DNA from: Candidatus Onthenecus intestinigallinarum
GTDB lineage: Bacteria; Bacillota; Clostridia; Christensenellales; Aristaeellaceae
Direction of reading: 5' to 3'
Assembly (NCBI GenBank): GCA_018713325.1
Contig: DVFJ01000017.1
Location: 9,355-73,354 of the forward strand
Length of the DNA stretch: 64,000 bases
Below, piece by piece: positions 40,602 to 58,662 of this stretch. The position numbers and the translations under genes are program-made. Below the pieces are notes generated by a model. That model was not told where the DNA came from. It searched no databases and saw nothing but the letters and a program-made list of their open reading frames with translations. Position 1 is the stretch's first letter. Each line of letters begins with the position of its first letter.

Positions 40602-40636
40602 GGGCGTCCGGGGAAAATCCGGACGCCTGTTTTTTT
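40602..40636 (+). terminator. Terminator at the yacL/holin junction
   Basis: GGGCGTCCGG...CCGGACGCCT followed by a T run that overlaps the holin stop codon. Confidence 0.75.
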
Positions 40637-41048
40637 ATTCGCTTTCGCCCCGTTCTCCGAGCACGTCCAGCGCGTCGCGCAACCGCTTGGGCCACGGCAC
40701 GCCCAGCAGCGCGGTGTTTTCCAGGATCGAGATGCCCTCGTTGGCGATGTAAAAGCATACCGCCGCATTGTGCAGCGCGTTCGCGTTCATTGCCCGGTCC
40801 AGCTGCCAGGCGATCAGCACCACCAGCGCCATCATTCCCTTGCGCAGTAGCCCGTCAAATCCTGCCTTGCTCGACAGTGTTCCACCCTCGCTCTTGTGCG
40901 ACACCCCGCGCCATGCGCAGACCAGCCCCGTCGCGTAATCCGCCGCCATGAACGCCGCCAGCGTCTGTACTCCAGCCGGCAGAGCGCACCACAGTCCCAT
41001 TACCGCTCCTATGCACGCTGCCATTCCCTTCGTCATTCTGTCCCACAT
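40635..41048 (-). CDS. Phage holin (toxin secretion/phage lysis holin family)
   Basis: DYATGL, LSSKAGFDGLLRKG, FYIANEGISILEN...LGVPWP. Confidence 0.92.
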   Translation of the reverse strand: MWDRMTKGMAACIGAVMGLWCALPAGVQTLAAFMAADYATGLVCAWRGVSHKSEGGTLSSKAGFDGLLRKGMMALVVLIAWQLDRAMNANALHNAAVCFYIANEGISILENTALLGVPWPKRLRDALDVLGERGESE

Positions 41049-41779
41049 ACCGTTTCCTCCTTTTCCGTTCCGTCGGTCGTCTCGATCACTCGCCACGCTC
41101 CCTGAAGCGTCAGCCGCTGGCCTTTTTCATCTTCGAGCGTCGTATGCGCCGCCCGATCCGCTTCTACCTCGCCGTCCATCTGCCTCAGATATGCTCCGCT
41201 CGCGTATCCCTCCAGACCCCCGTGCCGGATGCGCGGCCACCCGTCGCCGGTATCCTCCAGCACCTCGACCATCGCGCCCTTGGGGATGCTGCCCAGCACC
41301 TCGCCCGTCTCCGGCCAGGTCCTCACGCGCAGCGGATCGCGCTGCGTCTCCACCACCGCCCAGCCGGTCGGGCAGCTGTTCTCCTCCGCCGCGACCTCGA
41401 TATACCGGTGCGCGGCCAGCAGATCCCACGTCCCGTCCAGCGCCGTCTCCACCGTCTCGCCCGCTGCGCTGGATGCGTGCACCACCGTGCCCGCCTCCGT
41501 CACCAGCCCCACGTGGTGCACGTCCGTCCCGCTGCGCTTGAACGCCAGCATCCCCGCCCGCGCGCCCGCCGTCCCCTCCTGCCGCCACACCAGGTCGCGG
41601 TATTTGGCCGACGCGCCGTAGCTGTCCCACAGCGCGTTCGTCCCCGCCGTGGTGTAGTCCGCCTCGCCGCCCGGACAGTCCCGGATGACCTTCTTGATCA
41701 GGTTGATGCAGTCCAGCTGCGCGTAGGGCGTGCCCAGCAGCGCCCGCGCCCTGGCGATGGCATCCCTCGTTTGGATCAT
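41033..41779 (-). CDS. Endolysin: NlpC/P60-like catalytic domain plus SH3b-like domain
   Basis: LLGTPY..LDC, HHVGL, VHASS (Cys-His-His); LRVRTWP...IPKG..VEVL...GYASGAYL; adjacent to the holin. Confidence 0.8.
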   Translation of the reverse strand: MIQTRDAIARARALLGTPYAQLDCINLIKKVIRDCPGGEADYTTAGTNALWDSYGASAKYRDLVWRQEGTAGARAGMLAFKRSGTDVHHVGLVTEAGTVVHASSAAGETVETALDGTWDLLAAHRYIEVAAEENSCPTGWAVVETQRDPLRVRTWPETGEVLGSIPKGAMVEVLEDTGDGWPRIRHGGLEGYASGAYLRQMDGEVEADRAAHTTLEDEKGQRLTLQGAWRVIETTDGTEKEETVCGTE

Positions 41780-41797
41780 GCGCCCGCCTCCCTTCCG

Positions 41798-42613
41798 TCA
41801 GATGGCCTCCACGTACAGCCCGACCAACTCGCTAAGCGCCTGGAATACCGGGTTGCCCGTATCCCGCGTGCACCGGTACACCACGCCGTCCTGACTGTAG
41901 TACCTGCCGCTCTCCAGCGCCATGTTCCCCTCGTAGGGGATGGGATCGTCCGCCGTGCCCGCGTGCGCCGCGTCGATGTGCGTCCACAGCGAGGCCGTCT
42001 CCGTGCCCGGTGTCCATTCCGCCTGCGACGTGTGCGACGTGCGGCAGAGGTAGAGCGCGTCGCCCTCGCCGTAGCGCACGATGTCGCGATCCGCCTCGTA
42101 CGCCCTGTCGGGCTGCCACGCGTTAAACAGCGGCTTCACCGCCTCGATCTCCTCCGTGCGCAGCGCGTCCGCGTTCGCCGCCACCGTCATGCGCGCGGCG
42201 ACCTTCGCGGCATCCACCTGCACGAGCATCGACGCGCCGCCGGCGTCCGCCCCGTCGGGGGCCTGCGGCCACTCGACCCGATCCGGGAATCCTTCCTGCT
42301 GCGGCACATCGCGCAGCGCCTGCCGGTACGCCGCCCATGCCGCGCGAGATTCCTCGCTGCACGGATAGTCCGGCATCATCCGGTAGTCGCAGGCCTGTAG
42401 CATCCCGTCCCGGATCGCGCGCGCGAAGAGCGTGTCCGCCCGCTGTCCGCCCCGATAGAACACGCCGTCCGCATACGTGTCGCCGATGTTCACCGGCACG
42501 TTCTCCGGCGCGTCCGCCAGCGTCACGCCTTCCAGTTGCTCGTATTCCGACCGGCTCATGCCGCCCAGTTCAATGATGTTCTGCACCACGCCGTCCTTGA
42601 TGACGTAAACCAT
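41798..42613 (-). CDS. Tail-fibre assembly chaperone-like protein with C-terminal carbohydrate-binding-like repeats
   Basis: IRDGMLQACDY...WAAYRQALRDVPQQEGFP..VEWP; then LYLCRTSHTSQAEWTP...LW and YYSQDGVVYRCTRD. Confidence 0.75.
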   Translation of the reverse strand: MVYVIKDGVVQNIIELGGMSRSEYEQLEGVTLADAPENVPVNIGDTYADGVFYRGGQRADTLFARAIRDGMLQACDYRMMPDYPCSEESRAAWAAYRQALRDVPQQEGFPDRVEWPQAPDGADAGGASMLVQVDAAKVAARMTVAANADALRTEEIEAVKPLFNAWQPDRAYEADRDIVRYGEGDALYLCRTSHTSQAEWTPGTETASLWTHIDAAHAGTADDPIPYEGNMALESGRYYSQDGVVYRCTRDTGNPVFQALSELVGLYVEAI

Positions 42614-42628
42614 GCGTTCCCTCCTTCG

Positions 42629-44110
42629 TTACAGATACCGCCACGCGCGTACCGCCACCAGACCGGCGCCGCCCGCTGCGGAGTTGTCCGCCTGGTCGTC
42701 CGAGCCGCGCCCGCCGTGCCCGTAGCCCGAACCCGCCAGCGCCGCACCGCGCGCGTCTCTTCCCACGTTCCCGCCGCGTCCGCCCGCGCCCGGCGTTGCG
42801 CCATAGATGCCGGCGCCGCCGTCTCCGCCCTGCGCGTACAGGTAACGGGCGCTTGACGCGCTCTGAAAGCAGTAGTACTCGTCCGTATTGGCGCCCGTTC
42901 CGCCGTTCGTCGGCGTCGTTCCCCAGTTGCCGCCTGATCCGCTTCCGCCGCTCGTCCCCTTGTATCCGCCGCCGCCTCCGCCGCTGACGCCATAGGTGCC
43001 AGTACCCGTGCCGCCGCCAGGCGTGTTCATCCCATCTCCTCCCGCCATCGACGTCTGTGCGGTCGTGTGGGCCGCCCGCCCGCCGCCACCACCGCCCGCG
43101 CCTCCGTTGCCGCCGCGATGGCTTCCGGGGACGATCCAAGCCGGGGTATGCACGATGCCGCGCTGTCCTCCGCCCGCAGCCACCAGCGAGCCGAAGCCCG
43201 ACGCGCCGCCATCCACGCCTGAACGGCTTTGATCCCCAGCCGGCGCGGATTCAAGCCCCCTCGCGCCACCCGCACCGACGGTCACGGCCACCGCCGTACC
43301 AGGAGTGACCGCAACGCCCACCCCATGGGAGATGTGCCCGCTCGCGCCGCCGCATCCTCCTCCTCCATCTCCGAAGCGCGCGCTGCCGCCGCCGCCCCCT
43401 CCGATGCACGTCACGTCCACGCGCTCGGCCCATGCGGGCACCGTGTACGTCCCGCTCGCGGTGAAGTAGCTGTCCACATGCTGCGGCGCGTGGGCAGTCA
43501 GCGTCACGGCGCTGGACGCCGCCGAATCGAACCCTGCGACCGTGCCCAGCGCCTTGACGGTGAACGCGTAGCTCGCGCCGTCCGTGGCCGGGGCCGTCAC
43601 GACCAGCGTGGTCACGCCCGCCGCGACGGTTGTGAAGGCCGCTCCGCCCCGGTAGATGGCGTAGCCCGCAACCGGATTGTTCGTACCGCCCGCAGCGGCG
43701 CTCCACGAGAACGTCGCCTGTCCGGAGAGCTTCACGTCTTGTGCCGACAGCCATACGCTCGCGGGCGCGGCCGGAGCCGTCACGAGGCTCGTCAGCACCG
43801 CCGACGCCACCGATACCGGCGAATCGAAACCCGGAATCGTGCCCTTTGTCCGCACCGTAAAGGTGTAGCTTCCGTTCTGTGCGGGCGACTGTACGTCCAG
43901 GCTCGCCTGTGTCACGGTTCCCAGCGACATGCCGTCCCGGTAGACCTCGTAGCCCGCGATCGGGTTGCCCGCGCCGCCCTGCGCGCCGGTCCAGGAGAGC
44001 GTCACCGTCTGCCAGAATCCCACATTGTTTGCGCTGAGCGTCAGCTGTGTCGGGGCCGTGCAGGCCGTGACCAGCGCGCCTCCGTTCAGCACGCGGCAGA
44101 ACGTCGCCAT
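42629..44110 (-). CDS. Tail fibre / receptor-binding protein, copy A (two Fn3-like domains plus Gly-rich tip)
   Basis: LSWTGA...GYEVYRDG, FSWSAA...GYAIYRG; FTASGTYTVP...CIGGGGGG Gly-rich domain. Confidence 0.75.
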   Translation of the reverse strand: MATFCRVLNGGALVTACTAPTQLTLSANNVGFWQTVTLSWTGAQGGAGNPIAGYEVYRDGMSLGTVTQASLDVQSPAQNGSYTFTVRTKGTIPGFDSPVSVASAVLTSLVTAPAAPASVWLSAQDVKLSGQATFSWSAAAGGTNNPVAGYAIYRGGAAFTTVAAGVTTLVVTAPATDGASYAFTVKALGTVAGFDSAASSAVTLTAHAPQHVDSYFTASGTYTVPAWAERVDVTCIGGGGGGSARFGDGGGGCGGASGHISHGVGVAVTPGTAVAVTVGAGGARGLESAPAGDQSRSGVDGGASGFGSLVAAGGGQRGIVHTPAWIVPGSHRGGNGGAGGGGGGRAAHTTAQTSMAGGDGMNTPGGGTGTGTYGVSGGGGGGYKGTSGGSGSGGNWGTTPTNGGTGANTDEYYCFQSASSARYLYAQGGDGGAGIYGATPGAGGRGGNVGRDARGAALAGSGYGHGGRGSDDQADNSAAGGAGLVAVRAWRYL

Positions 44111-44836
44111 TTACACCACCTCCGAGAGTAGCACGAGCAGCGTGAACGCCTCCGACGGCTTCGCAAGGCATACCATCGTCAGCGTGTCGTCCGCGTCCAC
44201 GCGCAGGCCCGCCAGCAGCACGTTTCCGATCTGCGCGCCCTGCACCGCCGCGTCTACTCTCTGCGTCTGGCTGTCCGCGACCGTGCCCGCGCACGCGACC
44301 GTCTTCTCGTACCAGCCCTGCGCGTTCTGCGTCCAGCCGTCCGCCGCCACGCTCAGCTCCACGCGGCCCGTCTGCACGAGCGCCCCGCTGCCGGAGGCCG
44401 CCAGCGCGCCGACCTCCTGCGCCGTCGGCATCCACGTGTCCGGCCGCGCCCCTACGTCCGCGGCGGTCAGCGCATCCAGCTCCTCCTGCACCTTCTGCCC
44501 GCTCCATGGGTTGTCCGCGCTCGCCTGCGTGTCGTCGATCTGCGGAGCGTCCAGGCCGTCCTGGCCCGGCGTTCCATCCTGGCCATCCCTGCCTGTCGGC
44601 ACGCCGATCGTCAGCATGAGTCCGTCCGCTCCGGCTGCCACCTGTGCCGTCGCCTGCGCGCCCGGCTCCAGCGTCACCGCCCGTGCCTTCATGCCTGACA
44701 CTTGCGCAGCCGCCTCGCGCGCCAACCGTGCCGAAGCGAGCACCCACTGCTCCGTATGCGTATCCACTTCAGATACCGCCTGCGGCCGCGCCGTCACCTG
44801 TGCGTCAATCTGCCGGGCCGCTCCCGTCACGTCCAT
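44111..44836 (-). CDS. Tail fibre-associated protein with short collagen-like segment
   Basis: GRDGQDGTPGQDG, LTAADVGARPDTWMPTAQEVGA; C-terminus paralogous to 46569-47369. Confidence 0.7.
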   Translation of the reverse strand: MDVTGAARQIDAQVTARPQAVSEVDTHTEQWVLASARLAREAAAQVSGMKARAVTLEPGAQATAQVAAGADGLMLTIGVPTGRDGQDGTPGQDGLDAPQIDDTQASADNPWSGQKVQEELDALTAADVGARPDTWMPTAQEVGALAASGSGALVQTGRVELSVAADGWTQNAQGWYEKTVACAGTVADSQTQRVDAAVQGAQIGNVLLAGLRVDADDTLTMVCLAKPSEAFTLLVLLSEVV

Positions 44837-44849
44837 ATGCACCTCTCCT

Positions 44850-45212
44850 TTACACGTCGCCCACGGCTTCCAGCACCTCAAACGGCTGCGGCGCAAACGG
44901 CGTGACGACGGCAGTGCCATCCGTCACGTCACCCGCCTCATCCAGCTTCGCACCCAGCACAAAGCGTACATCCCACCAATACGTGCCCGGTTCCAACGAA
45001 CCGGTATCCGCACTTTGCAGCGCAAATACACAGCGCCCATCCGCATCCGGAACGACCGGCAGGCGCACCAATACCTCCCGGTTGCGCGCTTCTCGCTTGA
45101 GCGTGAAGACCGCGCGGTCCTCCGCGGTGAATGCTGCACCCGTGGCCGCGACGATCAGCTCCGCCGTATCTCCGCGCGTGAGCCGGATGCGCCGTCCTTT
45201 GATCTCAAACAT
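44850..45212 (-). CDS. Phage structural protein (BppU N-terminal-like)
   Basis: IRLTRGDTA, DRAVFTLK, DTGSLEPGTYWWDVR; GAGGAG RBS. Confidence 0.65.
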   Translation of the reverse strand: MFEIKGRRIRLTRGDTAELIVAATGAAFTAEDRAVFTLKREARNREVLVRLPVVPDADGRCVFALQSADTGSLEPGTYWWDVRFVLGAKLDEAGDVTDGTAVVTPFAPQPFEVLEAVGDV

Positions 45213-45224
45213 GGATTCTCCTCC

Positions 45225-46550
45225 TCACAGGTATCGCCCGGTTCTCACGGCGATCAGGCCGGCCGTTCCGTTTCCGTCGTTGTTGGATCCGCCGCCCGAT
45301 CCGTATCGCGTGCCGGGCAGCGCTGCGTTGCCGGTCTGTGCGTTGCCGGTGTTCACGCCCGTGCCGCCCGCGCCGCCCGTGCCCAGCCTGCGGCCGGTCG
45401 ACGGGTCGGAAAACGGATAGTAGGCCGCGTCGCTTGCAGGCGGGCTCCAGCTCTCGCCGTTGGCGCCCTGGCTGCCGATGTTTCCGCTGTTGGGGCCGTA
45501 CCGGCTCCAGCCGCCGCCCGCGCCGCCGATGCCGCCCGCGCCGCCCGCGCCGCCGTTGGGCGCGGAGGTGCTGGACGAGGCGTCGCCCGGGCTGCCGCCC
45601 AATCCTCCGCGCGCCGTCAGCAGCGATCCGAACGAGGTCGCCCCGCCCGCACGTCCGGCCTCAAACGCGTTGGGCGCGGCAATGCCCCCGCCGCCCACCG
45701 TGACCTGTATGGACGCGCCCGGCGTGAACTGTCCGGCGCCCAGCGCAAGCTCCGCCTTTTCGCCCGTGCCGCCGCCGCCAAAGCCGCCGCCCGGATACGT
45801 CGTGCCGTAGTTGTAGCCCGGCGCGCCGCGTCCGCCGCCGCCGCCGATGCAGCACACGCGCAGGGACTCGGCCCCCCACGGCACCGTGTACGTCCCGCTC
45901 TGCGTGAGGAACACATCCGCGTACTGCGGCGCGTGCGCCGTGAGCGTCACGGCGGTGGATACCGCCGAGTCGAACCCGGCGACCGCGCCCTTTGCCCTGA
46001 CGGTGAACGCGTAGCCCGCGCCGTCCGCGGCCGGGGCCGTCACGATCAGCGAGGTCACGCCCGCGGCGACGGTCGTAAACGCCCCGCCGTCCCGCAGGAT
46101 CTCGTATCCCGCGACCGGGTTGTTCGCGCCGCCCGCCGCCGCATTCCAGCTCAGCGTCGCCTGTCCGGACAGCTTCACGTCGTATGCGGACAGGCGCACG
46201 TTTGTGGGCGCGGCACAGGCTGTCACGCGGCTCGTCAGCGTCGCTGAGGCCGCCGATACGGGCGAATCGAAGCCCGGAATCGTGCCCTTTGTCCGCACCG
46301 TGAAGGTGTAGCTCCCGTTCTGCGCGGGCGACTGTACCGCCATGCTCGCCTGCGTCACGGTTCCCAGCAGCGCCCCGTCCCGGTAGACCTCGTAGCCCGC
46401 GATCGGATTTCCCGCGCCGGGCATCGCTCCGGTCCAGGAGAGCGTCACCGTCTGCCCGAATCCCACATGGTTTGCGCTGAGCGTCAGCTGTGTCGGGGCC
46501 GTGCAGGCCGTGACCAGCGCGCCGCCGCCGGTCGAGTAGCACATCGTCAT
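45225..46550 (-). CDS. Tail fibre / receptor-binding protein, copy B
   Basis: About the first 210 aa nearly identical to 42629-44110; different Gly-rich C-terminus. Confidence 0.75.
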   Translation of the reverse strand: MTMCYSTGGGALVTACTAPTQLTLSANHVGFGQTVTLSWTGAMPGAGNPIAGYEVYRDGALLGTVTQASMAVQSPAQNGSYTFTVRTKGTIPGFDSPVSAASATLTSRVTACAAPTNVRLSAYDVKLSGQATLSWNAAAGGANNPVAGYEILRDGGAFTTVAAGVTSLIVTAPAADGAGYAFTVRAKGAVAGFDSAVSTAVTLTAHAPQYADVFLTQSGTYTVPWGAESLRVCCIGGGGGRGAPGYNYGTTYPGGGFGGGGTGEKAELALGAGQFTPGASIQVTVGGGGIAAPNAFEAGRAGGATSFGSLLTARGGLGGSPGDASSSTSAPNGGAGGAGGIGGAGGGWSRYGPNSGNIGSQGANGESWSPPASDAAYYPFSDPSTGRRLGTGGAGGTGVNTGNAQTGNAALPGTRYGSGGGSNNDGNGTAGLIAVRTGRYL

Positions 46551-46568
46551 CCTGTCTCCCCTCCGCTC

Positions 46569-47369
46569 TTACATGTCTACCAGCACAACCTCTTCGACGC
46601 TCACGTCCAGCTCAAAGGCCGCCTGCGGCTGCGTCAGGCAGATCATCGTCAGCGTGCCGTCCTCGTCCACGCGGCAACCGGCCAGCATCACCTTGCCGAT
46701 CTGGCTGCCCGCCACGCCGTATCGCACGCGCTGCGTCTGGCTGTCCGCCTCCGTCCCTTCCGCCGTCATCTTCTTCTCCCACATGCCCGCCTCGCCCTGC
46801 GTCCATCCCTCCGCCGGCACGCTCAGCGTCATGCGCGCGATCTCCTGTACCATGTTGCCCGGCACGCGCGCCTCGACGGCCTGCAGCCTTGTCTCCCAGG
46901 CATCCGCGCTCTCCTGAATCGCAGCAGCTGCAGCCGTAGCGCGCGATGCGGCGGCGTCCGCGCCCGCAATGGCGGCGTTCACCTGTATGATCAGCTCAGC
47001 CCATGCGTCGTTCTGCGCGGGCGTCACCTCTGTGGACGGCGCCGGACGTGCAATGGGCGTAAAGGATGCCCGGTAGAGCGTGCACGCCTGGGACTGAGAG
47101 CGAATGGCATAGACATGCGCGCGGACGGTGCAGGCGCGGCGCAGATAGATGTCGGGCACATCCGCAAGCCAAAGCGCGGTCCGGCGGTCGTAGTGCGCGG
47201 TGCGGGTCTCAGCCTGTTCGTCGCCGTCAAAGCCGTAGTGGACCTCCACGGCGGCAGCCTCCATGTCGCCGGGCAGTCCGGAGAGGGCGAGGGTCTGTCC
47301 GGTATCGTATTGAAAGACGTCGGTGGCGACGGCCTCACGCGCGCCGCCGTCAAAGGAAGCATGGATCAT
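46569..47369 (-). CDS. Tail/baseplate-upper-like fibre anchor protein
   Basis: VFQYDTGQTLALSGLP...EVHY...DVPDIYL...PIARPAP N-terminus, coiled-coil, and C-terminal domain shared with 44111-44836. Confidence 0.65.
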   Translation of the reverse strand: MIHASFDGGAREAVATDVFQYDTGQTLALSGLPGDMEAAAVEVHYGFDGDEQAETRTAHYDRRTALWLADVPDIYLRRACTVRAHVYAIRSQSQACTLYRASFTPIARPAPSTEVTPAQNDAWAELIIQVNAAIAGADAAASRATAAAAAIQESADAWETRLQAVEARVPGNMVQEIARMTLSVPAEGWTQGEAGMWEKKMTAEGTEADSQTQRVRYGVAGSQIGKVMLAGCRVDEDGTLTMICLTQPQAAFELDVSVEEVVLVDM

Positions 47370-47419
47370 GGCGCTCGTCCTCCTGATGATGTGAAATGAA
47401 ACGGGAAATCATGGCGCGT

Positions 47420-47449
47420 GGGGGCGGAGCAGACGTCCGCCCCCCTTTT
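47420..47449. terminator. Intergenic hairpin between the head/nozzle and fibre modules
   Basis: GGGGGCGGA-N7-TCCGCCCCC; the T run is on the + (antisense) strand only. Confidence 0.45.
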
Positions 47450-47516
47450 CCTGCGTCGCGAGGGGGATGCCGCCGCATCGTCCCGGATGGTTCATCCGCG
47501 CTGCGCGCTTGTGCCG

Positions 47517-48359
47517 TCACCTGTACTTCTGCGTGCTCTTCCAGGCCTTGTCGAAGGGTTCGTCATCCCTTGCGGCGGTCTTGGACGAGGTCTTCGAGCC
47601 GCCCGAGGAGCCGGAAGCGCTCTTGACCGTGGCGGTCGAGCTCGCGCTGTTGGACCATCCGGAGGTCTGTTCGGTGCGCTGGGAGCCGCCCTGGGTGCGG
47701 GTGCCGGAGGCCAGCTCGACCGCGGTGAGGAAGTCCGCATTGCGAGCGGCCCGATCCGCCTGGGCGCGGTCGTACTCGCGGTCATACAGCTCCTGCAGGT
47801 AGTTGGAGACGTTTGTGGCGCGGTCCTGCTGTAGGCGGCCGAGCGTCTGTGCCAGCTGGTCGGACAGCTGTGTGCGCTGCTGGCCGATGTCTGCAGCCTG
47901 GCGGTTGGCGTCCTCGTCCACCTGGCGCAGCGCCTCAGCACGGGCGGCGTCGTTGCCCGCCAGGGTGGAGAGCGTGTAGCTGGACCGGCCCATGCCGCGC
48001 TCCAGCGCGTCCAGCTCAATGCGTGCGCGGGCCTGGTCAAAGGCAGCGTTCTGCCCTGCACGTTCGCGGTCAAGGCCGGCGAGGATGCCGGCGAGCTGTT
48101 GGGAAAGGGCGAGGTCCTGCTGTTGTTGTTGCTGCTTGGCGGCCTCGACGGCGGCGGCATACTCGGGCGCATAGCGCTGTTCAGCGAGCTGTTGCAGCTC
48201 TTCGTCCGTCTTGGGCGTGTATGCCGGGGATGCCAGTCCCTGAAGGAGACGCCGCAGGAGTTCCTCGTCCAGGAAGCGGGAGGAGAGCTGCCAATCGGAC
48301 GTCTGCGCAGAGGAAGTCGAGGCAGAGTTGGAAGAGGTGTTGGACGTGGTGGTGGACAT
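47517..48359 (-). CDS. Coiled-coil protein, candidate DNA ejection/pilot protein
   Basis: Gln/Ala-rich helical core with RGMGRSSY and Ser/Thr-rich ends; lies after the nozzle gene. Confidence 0.55.
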   Translation of the reverse strand: MSTTTSNTSSNSASTSSAQTSDWQLSSRFLDEELLRRLLQGLASPAYTPKTDEELQQLAEQRYAPEYAAAVEAAKQQQQQQDLALSQQLAGILAGLDRERAGQNAAFDQARARIELDALERGMGRSSYTLSTLAGNDAARAEALRQVDEDANRQAADIGQQRTQLSDQLAQTLGRLQQDRATNVSNYLQELYDREYDRAQADRAARNADFLTAVELASGTRTQGGSQRTEQTSGWSNSASSTATVKSASGSSGGSKTSSKTAARDDEPFDKAWKSTQKYR

Positions 48360-48610: not shown

Positions 48611-48636
48611 GTGCACCTCCGGTATGTAGGGTGATG

Positions 48637-50049: not shown

Positions 50050-50064
50050 GGGCGCTCCCTCCGA

Positions 50065-50292: not shown

Positions 50293-50313
50293 ACGAAAGC
50301 TCCTTTCCGGCTT

Positions 50314-51270: not shown

Positions 51271-51294
51271 GCGTTCCTCCTTTGGGTCGGCGGG

Positions 51295-51822
51295 TTACAG
51301 GGGGACGCGTTCGACGCCCGCAAGGGCGCGGTCGACGCGTTCGCAGAAGGCGGCGAAGTCTTCGCTGCTCATGCGACGGAAGTTGGGCGCGGGGGCGGCG
51401 GCGACGCCGCGGGCGCTGAGCACGGGCGCTTCGGCCTCGCGGCCGCGCCAGTAGGCGTAGGCGGTGGCCACATCCCACTCGCCCGTATCGATGCGCGCGG
51501 CGGCGACGGGATCGTCAAACATGCCGCGCAGGTCTGCGCCGGCGCCCACGAGCGCGCGCAGCTGGCCTTCAAGCGCGGCCAGCCGCGTCGCGCCGGGATG
51601 CGTCGCGTCCGGATGCGTCGCGCCGGACGATGTTTCCTCGCGGGCCGTTTCCTCGCGCGTCTCCCTCTCCCCCGCCTCCGCTTCATGGGCGTTCTGCGGG
51701 GGCTGGCGGGTTTCGGGCGATGCTTCGGGCTGCGCTTCAGCCGGCGCTTCGGGCGGTGTTCCCGGCAGCGCCTCAGGCAATGCCTGCTGTTGCGGCGAGG
51801 GGTTGAGCTGTTCTGTTGCCAT
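51295..51822 (-). CDS. Putative capsid scaffolding protein
   Basis: Acidic Pro/Glu-rich N-terminus, C-terminal FRRMSSEDFAAF; lies between portal and capsid. Confidence 0.65.
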   Translation of the reverse strand: MATEQLNPSPQQQALPEALPGTPPEAPAEAQPEASPETRQPPQNAHEAEAGERETREETAREETSSGATHPDATHPGATRLAALEGQLRALVGAGADLRGMFDDPVAAARIDTGEWDVATAYAYWRGREAEAPVLSARGVAAAPAPNFRRMSSEDFAAFCERVDRALAGVERVPL

Positions 51823-53395
51823 CGTTCAAACCTCCTTGTTGGTTTGCGCCGTCGAGCGCGTCGAGGATCTGTTCGCGGTTGTCCACGCCCTGCATGAGGG
51901 AGACGATGGCCCGCGGGGACAGGGGCGTGCCGCTCTTGAGGCACAGGTCCGCCAGTTGCAGGATGAATTCGTTGTGGGCCTGCACGCGCAGGGGGTTGCG
52001 TCGCTGCACATGTACGCGCACCTCGTAGGGCGGCCGGTTCTGTCCGGCGCGGGCGGGCAGCAGGAGCACGGAGCGCGTGCGCAGCGTGCCGCCGGGGGTA
52101 GCGCGGGCGACCATGAGGGCGCGGCGGGCGCGGATGCGTTCGGAGAGGATGCGCAGCATCTGCTCCACCGTCTGGCGGAAGCTCTCGGTGTAGGCGGCGG
52201 CATGCAGGCGGGTGATCTTGCCTCCTGCCTCCTGCAGGGCCTGAATGGCGCTGGCGGCGGTGACGCCCAGACCGGCCTCGCCGCGGGAGAACTGGTTCTG
52301 TCCGCTGTCCTGCTTCATCACGTCGGTCAGGTAGGTCATGAAGTTCATGACCTGTGGGTTGAGGGGTGCGGCCTGGAAGGAGCGCAGCGCGTCCTCACCG
52401 ATGGCGCCGCGTGCGCCGACGAAGTCGCGGGTCCAGTCGGCGAGGGCCTCGCCGTCCAGGCCTGCGTCCTCACGGTAGATGAATCGCTGGCGGCTGGAGG
52501 CGCGGGCGTTTTCGTCGATGTATCCGGCATAGCGGCAGGTGGCGCGCCACTGGTCGACGCAGTCCTCGACCAGGCCGTAACCAAAGGGGGAATCCTCGCG
52601 GCGGCGGTAGCGGAAGAGGATGAAGGGATAGCAGCCATGGGCGAAAACGGAGGCGCGGGAGCAGTAGAGCAGCGCGCCGCCGGCGATCTGGGCCATGTGG
52701 ATTTCGCAGCGGCCGGTGCGCGGATCGCGGGTGCGAAACCAGTATTCGATCAGCAGCACGGGCGGTTCTCCCGCCGGGGAGTAGCCGTCGCGGGGCTCCC
52801 AGTAGGGATCGGAGCCGATGAATCGTTCAGCGTCGGGATAGCGTTGACGGTACCACTCGCGGGGATAGAAGGCGGTCTTGAATACGGCGCGGCCCTGCTG
52901 TACGTCGTCAAAGAGCGGGTCGGGAAAGAATCCCTCCATGGGCCAGCGTTCGACGCGGACCATGCCGCGGCCGTCGTCCATGCCGGGGTCCCAGTAGACC
53001 TGCAGGATGCCGGTTCCGGCGACGGCGCAGTCCTCCATGAGGCGTGCGTACTGCTCGTCGAAGGCGCTGTGATAGAGGGCGTAGCCGATGACGTCGGTGA
53101 GCAGATCGGCGCTGCGCTGCAATTCAGGCCGTTCGGGGAGCATGAGGGGTTCGGGCATGGCGTCGAGCTGATCGGCGACGACGTTGTCGACGGTGGAGTT
53201 GAGGGTGGCCAGGCGCAGCGCGGCCTGCGGGAGGACATCGTCGCGCAGGGTGCGCAGGCGGCGGCAGGCGCGGGCCCGGTCGTGGACTTCGCGATGCGCC
53301 TGGCGGAATTCCTCAAAGAGGGCAAGGCCCTCGTCGCGCACGCGTTGCTGGCGTTCGGAGAGGGGCTGGACAGGCGGCGTCAGGTCGTGGGTCAA
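51773..53395 (-). CDS. Phage portal protein (P22-like podoviral type)
   Basis: LNSTVDNVVADQLD..PEP, AGTGILQVYWDP, FFPDP, SPFGYGLV, GVTAASAIQALQEAG. Confidence 0.85.
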   Translation of the reverse strand: MTHDLTPPVQPLSERQQRVRDEGLALFEEFRQAHREVHDRARACRRLRTLRDDVLPQAALRLATLNSTVDNVVADQLDAMPEPLMLPERPELQRSADLLTDVIGYALYHSAFDEQYARLMEDCAVAGTGILQVYWDPGMDDGRGMVRVERWPMEGFFPDPLFDDVQQGRAVFKTAFYPREWYRQRYPDAERFIGSDPYWEPRDGYSPAGEPPVLLIEYWFRTRDPRTGRCEIHMAQIAGGALLYCSRASVFAHGCYPFILFRYRRREDSPFGYGLVEDCVDQWRATCRYAGYIDENARASSRQRFIYREDAGLDGEALADWTRDFVGARGAIGEDALRSFQAAPLNPQVMNFMTYLTDVMKQDSGQNQFSRGEAGLGVTAASAIQALQEAGGKITRLHAAAYTESFRQTVEQMLRILSERIRARRALMVARATPGGTLRTRSVLLLPARAGQNRPPYEVRVHVQRRNPLRVQAHNEFILQLADLCLKSGTPLSPRAIVSLMQGVDNREQILDALDGANQQGGLNDGNRTAQPLAATAGIA

Positions 53396-53413
53396 TGGGG
53401 GATCCTCCTTTTG

Positions 53414-53974
53414 TCAGGTGCAGGCGCGCAGGCCGTGGCGGTTGGGGATGGCGGGGCCGAGCGGACCGCGGGAGGAGAGGCGCGCAGAGGCCTCCAGGAA
53501 GCGGGCGTGGAAGAAATCCGCTCGCTTGGCGCGATCGCCGGCAGAGGCGGCGCACAGGCGAAAGGCGGCGAAGTCGCATAGCGCGGGATGCGACCAGGCG
53601 GGCAGTCGCGGGATGTCCGCGTCGAGTTCCAGGTCGTCCTCGTCGCGTACAAAGTCGATGCTCAGGGGCTCTTCGCCGCGGGCCAGCGGATAGAGGCGCA
53701 GGTTGTCCACCAGGAAGGGCACCGGCCGGCCGTTCAGGCGCACGCGCAGCACCTGCACCAGGCGCGGCAGGGCGCGCAGATCGGCAAAGCGTCCGTTTTC
53801 GCCGTCGTCCTGCAGTTCGAGCAGCGCGCAGGCCCGGGGGCGCAGCGCACGCTGAAGCAGGTCGTGATAGCCTTCATTGACGTACGCGCCGACGAGGTCG
53901 TCAAAGAGTGGGATGTCCTCGGGGTTTTCTCCAATCAGTTCCAGGGCGCGGGCCTTGATCTGTCCGAAAGTCAT
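53414..53974 (-). CDS. Head-tail adaptor (tail tubular protein A-like)
   Basis: MTFGQIKARALELIGE...YVNEGY...DADIPRLPAWSHPALCDFAAFRL. Confidence 0.6.
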   Translation of the reverse strand: MTFGQIKARALELIGENPEDIPLFDDLVGAYVNEGYHDLLQRALRPRACALLELQDDGENGRFADLRALPRLVQVLRVRLNGRPVPFLVDNLRLYPLARGEEPLSIDFVRDEDDLELDADIPRLPAWSHPALCDFAAFRLCAASAGDRAKRADFFHARFLEASARLSSRGPLGPAIPNRHGLRACT

Positions 53975-54056
53975 GGAATCCCCCTTTCGAAAGGTCGGAC
54001 AGGGAAGGGAAAGCGGCGGGGATGCGCCGCGGGGACCGAGGGCCTTGGCTCCCGCG

Positions 54057-55448
54057 TCATCCCAGCGGGTCAAACCGCTTCGTCCGCCGCTGCGGCGGCG
54101 TTCGCGGGGGCAGCGGTCGCGACATCAGAAAGTAGCGCGTCTCATCGTAGGCATGGTCTTCCGCCCGCGTGTCGATGTCCTCCACGGCGGCGGGGTCGTA
54201 GGCCAGAGCGGGCACCGTGCGAATGAAGTCCCGGCACGTCGTGCAGACCTGCAGCATCGGCCTCCCCTCGGCGTCGAATCGGAGCCGCTCATGTAGCTGC
54301 GCCTTGCCCGGCAGGCGCGCGTTGTTGCCCGGCGAGAGGAAGAGCGCCGGGACCGCCTCACGCATCTGGTCATAGACGCTGGCGCCGCGGCTTCCGTCCC
54401 AGATGCTCGGGTCCGCCACGCCGAATACTGCAATCCCGGCCCGGCGTTCCGGCTCCAGCGCGCGCTCGATGCGCCGCGCGATGTCGCCAGGGGCCAGGCG
54501 CACGCCCTCGTTGGGCGCGCCGTCGCAGCCATAGACCTCCTTGTAGCGGTAGACCTCGCCCCGTTCGCCCACGGCCCAGACGCCGCAGGAAAACGGCCTG
54601 CTGTAGCCGTAGTCGAAGGAGATCCAGCGCGGCCAGTGCGCGGGCGGATCAAACGGCGCGATCACATGGGTGTACCGGCCGTCGGCGTAGTGCGCGGGGT
54701 CGTCGGTCCATTCGGGGAAGGCCTGGCCCTCGAAGGCGTCCCAGCGGCCCAGCAGCAGCGCGTCGCGCAGAGCGCGGGGCTTGCTCTCCAGCTCAAAGAC
54801 GTAGTCATCGTCGATGTAGGGGTTGTCGCGCACCGTCGCCTGGATGAACTGCCGCGTGCGCACCTGAGTTCGGCCCAGGATTGCCGAGGCCACCGGTTCG
54901 CGGATGATCGTTCCGGGCGGCGCAGGGTCGACGAAGCGCTCGCGGACCCAGGCATGGCCCGGTCCGCCGGGATTGGCCGTACAGCGCACGAGCGGCCGGA
55001 TACCCAGGCGTCGGTCGGCGCGCACGCGCGTGCGCAGGTACTCGTAGGTGTCGCGGCGGAAGTGCGTCAGTTCGTCGATGTAGAGCCAGTGGATCTCCGC
55101 GCCCTGATAGCGCAGCTTGTCGGCGTCCTCGTTGTTGCAGTGGCAAAAGCGCATCGTCGAACCGTTGACCAGTCGAAAGGCGTAGTGCGACGCGCTGTAC
55201 GTGCCCAGTTGCGGCGGAATGACGCGCTGGGCGATGGCGACCAGGTTCTTTTCCAGCTCCTGATACGTCCTGCGAAATAGAAAGGCTTCGGTGCCGGGGT
55301 GTCGCAGGCAGCGCAGCAGCGCGTCCCATACGCAGGCATAGCTCTTGCCGCCTCCGGCCGCGCCGCCATAGAGCACTTCGAATGCCTTCGAGGCGTGGAA
55401 CGCCCGTTGCCGCGCGGTCGGCTCATAGTGTAGCATCACTTGCCCCAT
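54057..55448 (-). CDS. Terminase large subunit
   Basis: Walker A YGGAAGGGKS, Walker B LYIDELT, TANPGGPGH, nuclease ISFDYGYSRP and EDHAYDETRY. Confidence 0.95.
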   Translation of the reverse strand: MGQVMLHYEPTARQRAFHASKAFEVLYGGAAGGGKSYACVWDALLRCLRHPGTEAFLFRRTYQELEKNLVAIAQRVIPPQLGTYSASHYAFRLVNGSTMRFCHCNNEDADKLRYQGAEIHWLYIDELTHFRRDTYEYLRTRVRADRRLGIRPLVRCTANPGGPGHAWVRERFVDPAPPGTIIREPVASAILGRTQVRTRQFIQATVRDNPYIDDDYVFELESKPRALRDALLLGRWDAFEGQAFPEWTDDPAHYADGRYTHVIAPFDPPAHWPRWISFDYGYSRPFSCGVWAVGERGEVYRYKEVYGCDGAPNEGVRLAPGDIARRIERALEPERRAGIAVFGVADPSIWDGSRGASVYDQMREAVPALFLSPGNNARLPGKAQLHERLRFDAEGRPMLQVCTTCRDFIRTVPALAYDPAAVEDIDTRAEDHAYDETRYFLMSRPLPPRTPPQRRTKRFDPLG

Positions 55449-55972
55449 GTTCCGGCCTCCCCGTCGGCGTCGCCTCCTGCGCGCGCACTGGGATGGTCTG
55501 CGCTTCCCCCGGCCTTGTCTTCGTCCGTCTTCATGGCTTCCGCTCCTCCCTTCACGTCCGTTTCATCTCCGGCCTCTTCGGCTTCGGCGAGGAATCCCTC
55601 GGAGCAGCCGATGAGCACCACGCGCACGCCCTCAGGGTCGGCGCCGCGCACGCCCGCACGGTCGAGCAGGTCGCGACAGGCGGCGAGCGCAGCGGATGGG
55701 TTGGCGCCGCGCAGGATGTCCAGCTCCGTGCGCACGGCCTCGAGCGTTCCGGCCCGGATGAGCCGGGAGGCGTCGTCGGCGGCGCGCTCGGTGATGCGGG
55801 TCATGTAGGCGCGGCAGGCGGGCTCGCGCAGCCAGCGGGCGAGAGTGGCGCGGGTGACGCCCGCCTCGCGGGCGACGTCGTCGGGTCGGATGCCTGCGCA
55901 GTAGCGCTCGACGGCGATGCGCCGCCGGGCGGGCAACGCGGGTGCATCCAGGCAAAAGGGCTCGTCATTCAA
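55436..55972 (-). CDS. HTH protein, putative terminase small subunit
   Basis: VAREAGVTRATLARWLREP HTH, AACRDLLDRAG; immediately upstream of and overlapping terL; TTG start after GGAGGAG. Confidence 0.65.
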   Translation of the reverse strand: MNDEPFCLDAPALPARRRIAVERYCAGIRPDDVAREAGVTRATLARWLREPACRAYMTRITERAADDASRLIRAGTLEAVRTELDILRGANPSAALAACRDLLDRAGVRGADPEGVRVVLIGCSEGFLAEAEEAGDETDVKGGAEAMKTDEDKAGGSADHPSARAGGDADGEAGTWGK

Positions 55973-56036
55973 TGCGCTCCTCCGTTCCATCCCGGTCAAG
56001 TGTCACGATCTCTCCGCACGTTCCGAGCTCAGAAAT

Positions 56037-56050
56037 CGAACGTTTGTTCT
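56037..56050. promoter_or_regulatory. SOS (LexA/DinR, Cheo) box
   Basis: CGAAC-GTTT-GTTCT matches GAAC-N4-GTTC, just downstream of the -10 of the structural-operon promoter. Confidence 0.75.
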
Positions 56051-56061
56051 CGTGCACTGGG

Positions 56062-56090
56062 GTTATACCAACATACGGGGCATTTTTCAA
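56062..56090 (-). promoter_or_regulatory. sigmaA-type promoter of the terminase-to-holin operon
   Basis: TTGAAA-17-TATAAC with extended TG and an upstream A-tract. Confidence 0.75.
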
Positions 56091-56740
56091 GTTTTTTTTG
56101 CAGAATGCCGCGAAAAATTTTCATAGCCGCGCAGCCGCCTGCGCAGGATGGACAGGGCTTCGCGCTCGATGAGGCGGATGTTTTCCGCGGAACAGCCCAG
56201 CCGCATCGCGATGTCGCAAAGTCTGCGGCGGCGCAGGATGCGCTCTCTCACGACGAAGCGCTGCCTTGGGGAGAGCGCGCGCAGCGCGCGCATGAGGTCG
56301 GCGCGCAGCTCGGCGCGGTCAAATCCCGGATCCGCTGCCGCCAGGTCGTCGGAGATGGCGGGCGTGGTGGCGGCGCGAAGGGCGGCCAGCTCCGCGCCGG
56401 GAAGCGGGAGCGCTTCGCCGCGCAAGAAGCGGGCGTAGTCGGCACGGCGGCGGTGCGGGATGTGGATGCTGGCAAACATGAGGCGCACGCCATGGGCGGC
56501 CTCGTTGCGGATGTAGGGATAGGCGACCGTCGGAAAATGGATGCCGCGCGCAGGGTCGAAGTCGCGGGCAGCCTTGCACAGGCCGATCATGCCGTATGCG
56601 ACGAGTTCCCGGCGCAGGCTGGGCGGCATGTCGGGATAGGCGCGCGCGATGACGGCGCGTACCAGCGACCGATGGCCGAGCACGAGTTGCTCGCGGTCGG
56701 CCTTCTCCTTCCCGGACCGTTCCTCCGGCCCGGGATGCAT
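56087..56740 (-). CDS. Sigma-70 family sigma factor (SigF/SigG/SigB-like, group 3)
   Basis: Region 2: LVAYGMIGLCKAARDFDPARGIHFPTVAYPYIRNE; region 4: LSPRQRFVVRER...IAMRLGCSAENIRLIEREAL. Start set at ATG after GGAGGGG; the frame stays open to 57403. Confidence 0.85.
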   Translation of the reverse strand: MHPGPEERSGKEKADREQLVLGHRSLVRAVIARAYPDMPPSLRRELVAYGMIGLCKAARDFDPARGIHFPTVAYPYIRNEAAHGVRLMFASIHIPHRRRADYARFLRGEALPLPGAELAALRAATTPAISDDLAAADPGFDRAELRADLMRALRALSPRQRFVVRERILRRRRLCDIAMRLGCSAENIRLIEREALSILRRRLRGYENFSRHSAKKT

Positions 56741-57425
56741 GGCGTCCCCTCCATGGGTCGCATCAGTCCGTCTCTCCGGCGTCCGATCCCCGCACACTCC
56801 AGCCGTCTCCTGAGGCGCGCGTTCGCATGCGCCCTCGCCACGCCGTCTCCGGCGTCTCGCCGCATATGCAGCCCCGTTCACCTCCATGTCCGGGTCCCCG
56901 GCCCGCGCCCGCTCCATGCCCTGCTCCGCCTCGTCCATGACAGGCCCCGCACGCCGCCTGCGCCGAGCGCCGCCCGCAGCCTCCACGTGGCATGGCGCGC
57001 TCCGCTCGTCCAGAGCCGCCATGCCGCATGCCGCCCCCGGCGTCTCCTGTCCGTCCCCTTCGCCCTGCGCCCGACGGCGTCTCCTGCCCGTTCCCGGCGT
57101 CCCATCCCGCCGCGGCGCGCCGTCCACGCATTCCGCCGCGTTCGCGCCGTCCCGTCTGCGCCGGCACCTTCCGATCCCCTTCGCCCGTTCAGTGCCCATT
57201 TCACTCGCCGCGCCGTCCGTCCAGTCCGCGGCCACATCGCACAGCTTCGCTTCCCCGTTCTTCTCGCTGCTCGTATCCAAAGCATTCCTTTCCCCTTTCT
57301 GCGGCGTCAAAACGCCCTCTGTCTCTCCAGGTAAAGCCGTCCCTTCTCCCTGTAACGGCCCGGTCGCGCTTCCCATGCGGTCCTCCTCTGCTGTCCATGC
57401 CATGCTTCAGCCCTCCTCCTCTCCT

Positions 57426-57857
57426 TCAGATCCGGTTCTGTCCCCCGTCTTCGCCGCCTCCCGGGTCCGCGCCGCGGCGCGTCTGCATCCGCTCCCAGCC
57501 CATCAGCTCGCAGCGGACGCAACCCGGCCCCGCCTGAAATACCAGGCGGATGGCCACGGCGTCGCCGGGGCGGAGGCGGCCTGCCAAATGCGGCGCGGCG
57601 CGCGCGCACAGTCTGAGTCCGTTTCGCATGCGCGCAAAGGGCAGGCGGGTCTGTTCGTTGAAGCGTCCCTCACGCCGCCCCCGCCAAAGGCATGCCGCGG
57701 CGCACGCGTCGTCGATGCGCCAGCCGTCCGCCCTTCGCGCGATCCACAGGCTCACACGGCGTGCGCGCGGCATCACGCCCAGCACGATCGCTTCACCGAT
57801 GCGTACGCCCACGCCGCCCCTGTCGCGCGCACATTCCGCGCCATATTCGCATATCAT
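57426..57857 (-). CDS. Hypothetical protein, first gene of the leftward regulatory operon
   Basis: TAAGGAGG RBS then MICEYGAEC; downstream of the leftward promoter; no family recognised. Confidence 0.55.
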   Translation of the reverse strand: MICEYGAECARDRGGVGVRIGEAIVLGVMPRARRVSLWIARRADGWRIDDACAAACLWRGRREGRFNEQTRLPFARMRNGLRLCARAAPHLAGRLRPGDAVAIRLVFQAGPGCVRCELMGWERMQTRRGADPGGGEDGGQNRI

Positions 57858-57992
57858 GCAAATATCCCTCCTTATTTCGCATTTAATGCGACATATGGTA
57901 ACACACGGAATCGCCCGCGTCAAGCACTTTTTCGCGTTTCATGCGAATTTTTTTGCCGACGTGTTGCAAATGCGCGAAAAAGCTGATATACT
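57846..57992. promoter_or_regulatory. Divergent promoters with three repressor operators
   Basis: 17-bp palindromes TTCGCATATCATGCAAA (57846), TTCGCATTTAATGCGAC (57876), TTCGCGTTTCATGCGAA (57931). Leftward TTGACG-17-TACCAT (57923-57895); rightward TTGCAA-17-TATACT (57964-57992). Confidence 0.8.
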
Positions 57993-58020
57993 CAAGAAGA
58001 GAAACCGGGAGGTGAGCGGG

Positions 58021-58662
58021 ATGTCGATGGGCGAACGGATTCGGCGGCGGAGGCAGGAATTGGGATTGACCGTCGAGGAGGTTTCCCGGGCGTTGGGGAA
58101 AAACCGCGCGACGGTGTATCGATACGAGCGCGGGGACATCGAGGATTTGCCCACGACGGCGTTGGAGCCGCTGTCGCGGGTGCTGCAAACGACGCCGTCC
58201 TATCTGGCGGGCTGGACAGAGGATGTGGACGGAATCGAGGGGCTGCTGGCAGTGCGCAGCCGCCGGGTGCCCCTGGTGGGCGCGATCGCATGCGGCGAGC
58301 CGATCTGCGCGCCGGAGATCGAGGTGCTGGAGGTCGAAGCGGACCTTCAATGCGACTGCGCGATGGTCTGCCGCGGAGACAGCATGACGGGCGCGCGCAT
58401 CTATGATGGCGACATCGTGTACCTGCGCCGCCAGGAGGATGTAGAAGACGGCCAGATTGCGGCGGTGAGCATCGACGGGGAGCTGACGCTCAAGCGCGTG
58501 TTCAAGGTGCGGGATCTGGATGATGAAGGCCGCGTGATCTACCGCACGGAGCTGCGCGCGGAAAATCCGCGGTATGCGCCCATCCGGCTGGGAGGCCCGG
58601 GCGAGACGCGGCGGGCGGATATTCTGGGCCTGGCGGTGGCGTTCCGCTCGCGCCTGACGTGA
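58021..58662 (+). CDS. CI/LexA-like repressor (XRE HTH plus S24 autopeptidase)
   Basis: MGERIRRRRQELGLTVEEVSRALGKNRATVYRYERG; IACGEP cleavage loop, GDSM (Ser), TLKRV (Lys). Confidence 0.92.
   Translation: MSMGERIRRRRQELGLTVEEVSRALGKNRATVYRYERGDIEDLPTTALEPLSRVLQTTPSYLAGWTEDVDGIEGLLAVRSRRVPLVGAIACGEPICAPEIEVLEVEADLQCDCAMVCRGDSMTGARIYDGDIVYLRRQEDVEDGQIAAVSIDGELTLKRVFKVRDLDDEGRVIYRTELRAENPRYAPIRLGGPGETRRADILGLAVAFRSRLT

Follow-up and report, generated by a model that had tools for sequence, protein, structure and literature searches.

The 64,000-nucleotide window analysed here (positions 9,355 to 73,354 of contig DVFJ01000017.1 of Candidatus Onthenecus intestinigallinarum) contains, at positions 40635-58662, a phage-derived element of about 18 kb. 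It is probably a particle system that is fixed in the host, maintained by selection and inducible by the SOS response, and that would package chromosomal DNA in situ; we give this reading a probability of roughly 0.6. By its gene content, the element is a reduced, chromosomally fixed descendant of a temperate short-tailed phage, and a comparison of structural genes makes the parent lineage distant kin of the Bacillus Pagevirus group. It is immobile, occupies the same site in a sister species, evolves under purifying selection and is fixed in natural populations. It is best filed as a young, contiguous, host-fixed podophage remnant that is still controlled by its switch and whose intermediates are kept in the same genus. 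The host genome (G000) is an 87.5%-complete metagenome-assembled genome (MAG) from chicken gut, 2.43 Mb long and 66% GC, of an uncultured member of the Oscillospirales ('Eubacteriales'); the Clostridium-like host suggested by a first-pass annotation of the sequence is right at the level of the class and not beyond it.

Genes were called by GC content at third codon positions (GC3) and assigned to families by Pfam, PHROG and NCBIfam profile searches. In a window of about 68% GC, the element holds 21 intact open genes, all on the minus strand except that of the repressor (Table 1). The first-pass annotation had described a complete set from terminase to holin in about 18 kb, and all the genes that it listed are present and open. 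PDB sequence searches with the nozzle, DUF7934 and 266-amino acid (aa) proteins gave no match, and the nozzle was identified by a fold search. A model of this 470-aa protein, built from an alignment of ten relatives, has its best PDB matches in Foldseek among the tail complexes of Pa223, VP1, P22 (gp10) and SU10 (E-values down to 5e-16, TM scores of about 0.6), so that the label first given to it agrees with a predicted podovirus tail hub/nozzle fold. No contractile-tail sheath or tube family was found in profile searches of the element, whose tail is made up of adaptor and nozzle.

Profile searches identified radA and yacL (PIN-TRAM) on the left flank of the element, and a large purL and a MatE gene on the right. 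As had been claimed, a terminator hairpin closes each end against these housekeeping genes and the composition is host-like (GC3 of 0.84 versus 0.87 +/- 0.05 in the host). The reported absence of integrase, replication genes and att repeats was also confirmed: no gene for a tyrosine or serine recombinase lies anywhere on the 87-kb contig, the D5, SNF2, PolA and DUF2800 proteins of related phages have no tblastn match within the element, neither junction holds a tRNA or integrase remnant, and the two ends have no direct repeat longer than 10 nt in common (shuffle mean 9.3, maximum 14). The integrase, att sites and replication module of an intact temperate phage are thus all missing and, having no mobility or replication genes of its own, the element should indeed be unable to excise or replicate alone. 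Elsewhere in the genome, the start of contig C22 (C22:295-1923; L060) bears an N-terminal D5-primase fragment (45% identity to the D5 of prophage G040 c2, see below) and a SNF2 fragment (63%), which indicate that this phage lineage has left a further remnant here; for terL, portal and major capsid protein (MCP), no second gene was found in the genome.

The evolution of the element was studied in five species of the genus (G000, G100, G040, G144 and G180). In G100, at about 87% nucleotide identity, it occupies the same site between radA-yacL and purL-MatE, over three contigs. G100 keeps a D5_N/DUF5906 primase-helicase gene between the homologue of the 143-aa protein gene and the sigma factor gene. 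It is padded with tandem repeats and cut between its two domains by a stop codon and an insert of 0.5 kb or more that contains repeats, where the contig breaks, and no trace of it was found in G000. The locus is therefore in part what the first-pass annotation had considered damaging to its proposal, a deletion derivative at the same site, inasmuch as G100 keeps a split D5 there and G000 has lost it. The junction spacers of G100 are inflated by simple repeats and unalignable with those of G000, and they hold no tRNA or integrase remnant.

Full-sized relatives are found in G040 (c2) and G144 (C56), in the form of prophages of about 42 kb whose structural module is homologous to and mostly collinear with the element. 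Their additional genes encode a tyrosine integrase, a DUF2800 nuclease, PolA (a family A DNA polymerase), a D5 primase-helicase, a SNF2 helicase and a sigma factor; G144 C56 was seen to encode an S24 repressor as well, the corresponding end of G040 c2 not having been read. Between the element and G040 c2, identities reach 81% for the MCP, 73% for the large terminase subunit (TerL), 65% for the portal and 62% for the nozzle. In both prophages, an open reading frame (ORF) of 2754-2907 aa directly follows DUF7934. The same layout recurs in more distant relatives (67-73% MCP identity), with a giant ORF carrying LPD38 (a 'large polyvalent protein' domain), of which no remnant was found in G000 or G100. 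The nearest cultured phages are the Pagevirus podophages of Bacillus megaterium (Pony and Page, about 40 kb), which encode a sigma factor too; the MCP of Pony is 36% identical. Pony carries DnaD/DnaC instead and has a giant ORF; the element has neither. The giant ORFs of the related prophages (L015:8901-17165 in G040 c2, L068:11164-17572, L065:6968-12997 and L070:13986-20960) are 2600-3100 aa long, and the copies have only their first 70-80 aa or so in common and LPD38 in some cases; that of G040 c2 is blank in PHROGs and Pfam and shows no significant similarity to Pony gp20. Within the host family, MCP homologues are present in 52 of 201 sampled genomes and 26 of 72 genera, their contexts vary and some genomes have two copies, which suggests that the lineage as a whole behaves like a phage. 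All five genomes of genus g10 have MCP homologues, but those loci share with the element only the MCP (37% identity) and nothing else.

A second locus of G040 (c1) lies beside the same host block as the element. It is integrase-less and carries a repressor, an intact D5, a sigma factor and the genes from terS through the holin, and its purL linkage and orientation are those of the element; despite this, its structural genes group with the integrase-bearing prophages in phylogenetic trees. At this locus (G040:C3:700962-775712; L037, L038, L013, L014), a Na+/H+ exchanger gene and four unrelated minus-strand genes lie between sigma and terS, the portal is duplicated in tandem, with an in-frame insert of 82 aa in each copy, and about 34 kb separate portal and scaffold.

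Near-identical copies of the element occur in sequencing runs from 13 studies, mostly of chicken gut, between 2017 and 2025. The layout of reads was studied in four runs: three independent DNA runs (2019-2025, chicken and bird metagenomes) and one RNA run. Contigs of 8.7 kb and 10.4 kb with about 99% identity run from DUF7934 or the nozzle as far as the spacer or the repressor and are primase-less, and both junctions with the host are spanned by metagenome contigs. Short-sided joints inside the element (sides of 20-58 nt) were treated as repeats or other organisms, with the exception of two joints between fibre cassettes. Chicken-gut metatranscriptome contigs cover much of the element, but DNA carry-over is possible and they give no expression level, for which reason they were not counted as evidence of transcription. 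These populations bear on the possibility that the element is an autonomous temperate phage, with a recombinase encoded elsewhere and replication through host functions or the 143-aa protein. Other contigs of the genome do hold tyrosine and serine recombinases, and the 143-aa protein is of no known family. Yet, besides the missing att repeats, no empty-site, 18-kb-skip or circular joint occurs in the four runs, the element has the same depth as its yacL flank, and some 20 kb of replication and lysogeny genes of every full relative are gone. No near-identical free form was found in IMG/VR or the phage collection, the best IMG/VR match having 50% MCP identity in a search whose method finds close relatives only. 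An autonomous phage is in consequence a very improbable explanation.

The regulatory genes are consistent with induction by DNA damage. The cleavable repressor and the own sigma factor that had been claimed for the element are borne out by their residues and domains: in the S24 repressor, a Cys-Gly site aligns with the Ala-Gly of LexA and the serine of RGDSM and the lysine of LKR are present, and the sigma factor has sigma-70 regions 2 and 4. The switch region bears the palindromes TTCGC-N7-GCGAA and TCGCAT-N3-ATGCGA. Upstream of terS, a late promoter is followed by a LexA-type box (Table 1). Both are kept in G100, where the box is perfect (AGAACAAATGTTCT) and the remaining spacer has diverged; the G040 and G144 relatives do not have this box. 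GAAC-N4-GTTC sites number only 15 in the genome, which also has a host LexA gene. Direct control of the late operon by LexA is plausible from these motifs, and the SOS box on the late promoter looks like an acquisition from the host side. Two further perfect AGAAC-N4-GTTCT boxes lie in G000, at C10:42659 (L057) and C2:52970 (L058). One of them, which sits behind a ATGTTGGTATAAC extended -10 motif, as in the late promoter of the element, has on one side a Zn-ribbon/PG_binding_1 gene, whose product may be a YneA-like SOS division inhibitor, and on the other an RNase_T exonuclease gene; the second box lies ahead of an Amidase_3 gene.

The element shows the marks of purifying selection. Between G000 and G100, synonymous divergence (dS) is 0.18-0.60 for most of its genes (0.84 for sigma, 0.98 for the 143-aa gene) and 0.20-0.59 for the host flanks, and the ratio of nonsynonymous to synonymous divergence (dN/dS) ranges from 0.03 (MCP) to 0.57 (endolysin), mostly 0.15-0.30, against 0.09-0.27 in the flanks. 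The relaxed selection that the first-pass annotation had proposed to look for in terL, portal and MCP was not seen (0.06, 0.17 and 0.03, at host-like dS), and the value for the small terminase subunit (TerS) is 0.27. No internal stop was found in the element genes in this comparison, and single-frame, full-length tblastn alignments show that net frameshifts are absent; a blastn test for insertions and deletions was uninformative because of many compensating 1-2-nt gaps and was dropped. In the trees of TerL, portal, MCP and nozzle, the G000 and G100 sequences form a well-supported, long-branched pair apart from the integrase-bearing prophages. Within the species, 12 of the 13 listed differences in the holin fall at third codon positions.

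Such a pattern would not be expected from an ordinary defective prophage that decays without benefit to its host and owes its intactness to recent immobilisation or hitch-hiking. Over about 13% nucleotide divergence, not one of 19 ORFs has been broken, whereas in neutral simulations with 13% random substitutions, the only type of change simulated, a mean of 17 of the 19 ORFs was broken and all stayed open in 0 of 500 trials. It is true that the primase deletion is specific to G000 and that the G100 gene is in pieces, which makes the decay recent and ongoing, that the related c1 locus of G040 is scrambled and that the distribution of MCP homologues in the family is patchy. Nevertheless, dN/dS is at the low level of the neighbouring housekeeping genes, a host-type SOS box appears to have been gained on the late promoter and different studies and years show one and the same fixed form. 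Integration, replication and the giant protein were lost while every gene for particle, packaging and lysis was retained, which argues that the decay was selective. Mere decay is, for these reasons, distinctly unlikely.

If the element is indeed a selected particle system, its operation can be outlined as follows, induction, particle formation, packaged DNA and transfer being what we infer from the features above. DNA damage would activate RecA, which would stimulate the self-cleavage of both the S24 repressor and the host LexA. The leftward operon, which encodes the 143-aa protein and the sigma factor, would then open, as would the late promoter with its LexA box upstream of terS, and heads and short tails would assemble. 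TerS, which has kept a helix-turn-helix (HTH), and TerL would start packaging on the unexcised chromosome at a pac site of the element itself, and headful filling would proceed leftward, first along the late genes and then into yacL, radA and the DNA past them, before the particles are released by holin and endolysin. In that case, the element would serve as a host-owned, damage-triggered transducing particle, akin to a gene transfer agent (GTA) in its lack of replication and excision, and nearer to lateral transduction in its packaging.

HTH_23 matches TerS at residues 24-58 with an E-value of 1e-4, below the curated cut-off, and the proteins at the same position in relatives match a Sigma70_r4-type HTH. 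Together with the 81% MCP identity to 42-kb prophages, this HTH leads one to expect pac-directed headful packaging and not the packaging of random short fragments; judging from these sequences, a start at the element's pac site, with packaging into the adjoining host DNA, is likelier than random packaging. The first-pass annotation had expected the terminase to package chromosomal DNA, which would make a gene-transfer or killer particle. The part of this claim that stands is that the element is non-replicating, fixed and selected; random packaging, in view of the TerS HTH, the MCP identity and the repressor, is not the most likely mode.

The closest known parallel to the proposed mode is that of locked-in P22 (Mud-P22) and of lateral transduction, reportedly described by Chen et al. 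in Science in 2018 (cited in PMC12946183), in which headful packaging is initiated at pac and runs unidirectionally from an unexcised prophage into adjacent host DNA. A P22-type portal, TerS and TerL are present in the element as well. However, the locked-in P22 and lateral-transduction prophages replicate in situ and are engineered or fully functional, while the element is natural and without replication genes. One may tentatively see in the genus a conversion series, from the full 42-kb prophage (G040 c2, G144) through the integrase-less form with a split primase (G100) to the 18-kb form with an SOS box (G000), the end product being a hard-wired lateral transducer that, on DNA damage, packages the radA-yacL side from a fixed pac site into full-size heads. 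A mode of this kind, for which we can likewise claim only limited confidence, would stand between lateral transduction and the classical GTAs, and would be undescribed as a domesticated system.

Another interpretation is that of a strict GTA of the FpGTA or RcGTA kind, with small heads filled with random short host fragments and no preference for its own locus. The first-pass annotation regarded the type as undescribed for this lineage, which is no longer so: a GTA-like element of podovirus type whose capsid is N4-gp56, FpGTA, was published for Faecalibacterium prausnitzii, also of the Oscillospirales (Borodovich et al., Nat Commun 2026; PMC12946183). Both FpGTA and the element are of podovirus type, reside in an Oscillospirales gut host, lack replication and integration genes and have closely parallel gene content. 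Their capsids are both N4-gp56, although the match was made by family name only (TIGR04387 for the element, RCH50849.1 for FpGTA). The shortened and replaced N-terminal half of the scaffold-like protein could moreover change head size. There are also differences. FpGTA consists of two operons 125 kb apart, one for head and packaging and the other for tail and lysis, and is near-ubiquitous in its genus (PMC12946183), while the element is one contiguous block with a phage repressor and its reduced form occurs in two species, with full prophage relatives in the same genus. FpGTA TerS has no obvious DNA-binding domain, in contrast to the weakly matched HTH of the element, and a Prp-like protease is encoded between the FpGTA portal and MCP genes (PMC12946183), where profile searches of the element found none. 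The main text on FpGTA mentions neither a repressor nor LexA, and no phage sigma factor is reported there (PMC12946183), so that, by this description, the CI-type repressor, sigma factor and LexA-type box set the element apart. FpGTA heads of about 40 nm hold 8.4-8.9 kb of DNA (PMC12946183). In a large-database search, the MCP had 2278 relatives, and among the best 120 of these the identities do not go down as far as the FpGTA level.

Criteria for strict GTAs (viriforms) have been set out by Kogay et al. 2022 (PMC9662315). The element is a phage-derived structural cluster without replication or integration functions of its own, and vertical inheritance and purifying selection apply to a clade of two species only. 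As regards host regulation, the LexA-type box is conserved, yet a phage CI-type repressor and sigma factor are kept, and the sequence hints on packaging (TerS HTH, MCP close to that of 42-kb prophages) are opposite to random packaging into small heads. A strict GTA is accordingly rather unlikely.

A PBSX-like killing role is possible. PBSX of Bacillus subtilis has an xre repressor and the sigma-like late factor xpf, is SOS-inducible, packages 13 kb of host DNA and kills sensitive cells. Like the element, it is a non-replicating, chromosomally fixed remnant that has a repressor and a sigma-type factor and has kept terminase and lysis genes; it differs by a contractile, myovirus-type tail and small heads, where the element has a short P22/SU10-type tail and an MCP near those of 42-kb phages. 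The particles, or SOS lysis itself, could thus serve to kill or to release public goods as altruistic lysis, the DNA being incidental and undelivered. Besides the regulatory logic, the loss of the giant polyvalent protein of every full relative, which could abolish DNA delivery or establishment, would fit this explanation, and so would the duplicated fibre cassettes, which vary more than any other part in natural populations, as they should if the recognition of targets matters. But TerS, TerL and portal, needless for killing alone, are among the most constrained proteins, and short-tailed particles have no contractile or known membrane-depolarising device. We regard a killer or lysis particle of this kind as unlikely.

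Several points speak against the proposal of a selected, SOS-inducible packaging system. The arrangement of yacL, element and purL, which the first-pass annotation had proposed to trace across relatives, is shared with G100, but nothing lies beside yacL or purL in G144 and G180, where the site is empty. The reduced form is found in two species only, the purL-linked element of G040 is scrambled, and conservation is shallow compared with RcGTA or FpGTA. The purifying selection seen between G000 and G100 could partly predate the loss of active-phage life. The assignment of the LexA box relies on consensus and conservation, and no recA was found in the incomplete MAG. With one template per chromosome and no replication, the yield may be low, and particles without the giant protein and with an altered scaffold N-terminus could be non-delivering or smaller than assumed. 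Finally, the organism is uncultured and the evidence on the element comes from sequence.

Table 1. Features of the element and its boundaries, in window positions
Feature	Position	Strand	Basis or remark
Terminator hairpin, left boundary	40600..40630	+	between yacL stop and holin stop
Holin (Phage_holin_4_1)	40635..41096	-	E 5e-30
Endolysin-like protein, weak NlpC/P60-type N-terminus and SH3_3	41033..41779	-	profile matches; dN/dS 0.57
Tail-fibre assembly chaperone domain and CBM5_12	41798..42613	-	profile matches
Tail fibre A (Gly_rich_2), paralogue of fibre B	42629..44110	-	profile match; tblastn
269-aa fibre-cassette protein, start uncertain	44111..44920	-	C-terminal ~90 aa common with 266-aa protein
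120-aa conserved small tail-module protein, added to map	44850..45212	-	50% identity to 117-aa protein of G040 c2, E 9e-33
Tail fibre B (Gly_rich_2)	45225..46550	-	89% aa identity to G100
266-aa fibre-cassette or baseplate-like protein	46569..47369	-	N-terminus conserved across genera
147-bp spacer with hairpin; giant-ORF position in related phages, remnant-free here	47370..47516	.	comparison with relatives
DUF7934 tail protein	47517..48359	-	profile match; kept in all relatives
83-aa small ORF, added to map	48359..48610	-	65% identity to same-position 32-aa ORF of a relative
Tail hub/nozzle, 470 aa (predicted P22 gp10 / SU10 nozzle fold)	48637..50049	-	AlphaFold pTM 0.80; Foldseek
75-aa head/neck small protein	50065..50292	-	phrog_13966; kept in relatives
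MCP, N4-gp56 family	50314..51270	-	TIGR04387, 273 bits (cut-off 60); phrog_1357
Scaffold-like protein	51295..51822	-	conserved C-terminal ~95 aa
Portal (P22/SU10 type)	51773..53395	-	profile matches
Head-to-tail adaptor (SU10_adaptor)	53414..54073	-	profile match
TerL	54057..55448	-	profile matches; 94% aa identity to G100, dN/dS 0.06
TerS with N-terminal HTH	55436..55999	-	HTH_23 (weak), phrog_2538
Late promoter TTGAAA-17-TGgTATAAC, then LexA-type box AGAACAAACGTTCG	56038..56091	-	5' of terS
Sigma-70 family factor, regions 2 and 4, ~217 aa	56087..56740	-	profiles; 68% aa identity to G100, dN/dS 0.29
Low-complexity spacer, in frame with sigma gene	56741..57425	.	site of D5 primase-helicase in G100
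143-aa protein, first gene of leftward operon, matching no known family	57426..57857	-	50% aa identity to G100
Divergent promoter region	57858..58017	.	TTGACG-17-TACCAT leftward, TTGCAA-17-TATACT rightward
CI/LexA-type repressor, HTH_3 and Peptidase_S24, 214 aa	58018..58662	+	cleavage and catalytic residues intact
Terminator hairpin, right boundary	58769..58810	-	3' of purL

Some features of the map call for comment. The length of the sigma factor was corrected to about 217 aa, the remainder of its 438-aa ORF being low-complexity spacer, and that of the repressor to 214 aa. About 660 bp upstream of the sigma gene (56741-57403) are open in frame, with a strong ribosome-binding site and an ATG at 57403; this sequence is rich in Arg, Ala and Gly, of low complexity and unconserved in G100. 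In G100, the non-coding DNA (C98/C99; L028:10300-12382, L029:1-3300) holds more than 15 copies of GTTCGNCTCTGTTCG-like direct repeats, 235-nt tandem units lie upstream of the primase, and 21- and 30-nt tandem repeats lie inside its ORF. Repeats of this type, for which iterons, promoter arrays or a family resembling miniature inverted-repeat transposable elements (MITEs) are candidates, are almost absent from G000.

Among the structural genes, that of the MCP, a protein with 98.7% aa identity to its G100 counterpart, combines the highest GC3 (0.95) and the lowest dN/dS of the element, beyond the flanking housekeeping genes, as expected from tuning for high expression in the host. The holin has 86% aa identity to that of G100 (dN/dS 0.16). 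The replaced N-terminal half of the scaffold-like protein, as compared to the full prophages, is short and rich in Pro, Ala and Glu; at window position 51597, within this variable part, contigs of two of the four runs bear an in-frame 15-nt insertion (ATGCGTCGTATCCGA), a within-species length polymorphism.

The fibre genes form two paralogous tandem cassettes (at 42629-47369), each made up of a 266- or 269-aa protein and a Gly_rich_2 fibre, with the 120-aa gene between them; the cassettes have stalks in common and different tips. This region is fragmented and variable in metagenome contigs, in which joints link the two cassettes (42984->45824 and 43844->46293) and the depth is uneven. The G100 copy nearest to fibre A of G000 (86-92% aa identity) lies outside the element, on a separate 81-kb contig (C9; L030:11503-13690), about 3.6 kb from a 208-aa tyrosine-recombinase ORF (C9:7486-7923). 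The region may be a spare-tip or cassette-exchange system.

The origin of GTAs and phage-like bacteriocins from prophages has mostly been inferred from end products, and this genus shows full, intermediate and reduced forms. The series displays what is lost first (the integrase, the replication genes and the giant establishment protein) and what is kept or gained (the particle, packaging, lysis and the SOS box). Should nothing form, the locus would be a clean case of selective retention in a defective prophage. If particles do form and carry chromosomal DNA, they would provide a damage-triggered gene flow in chicken-gut Oscillospirales that is distinct from FpGTA and that would, if true, be relevant to the spread of genes in poultry microbiomes under SOS-inducing antibiotics.

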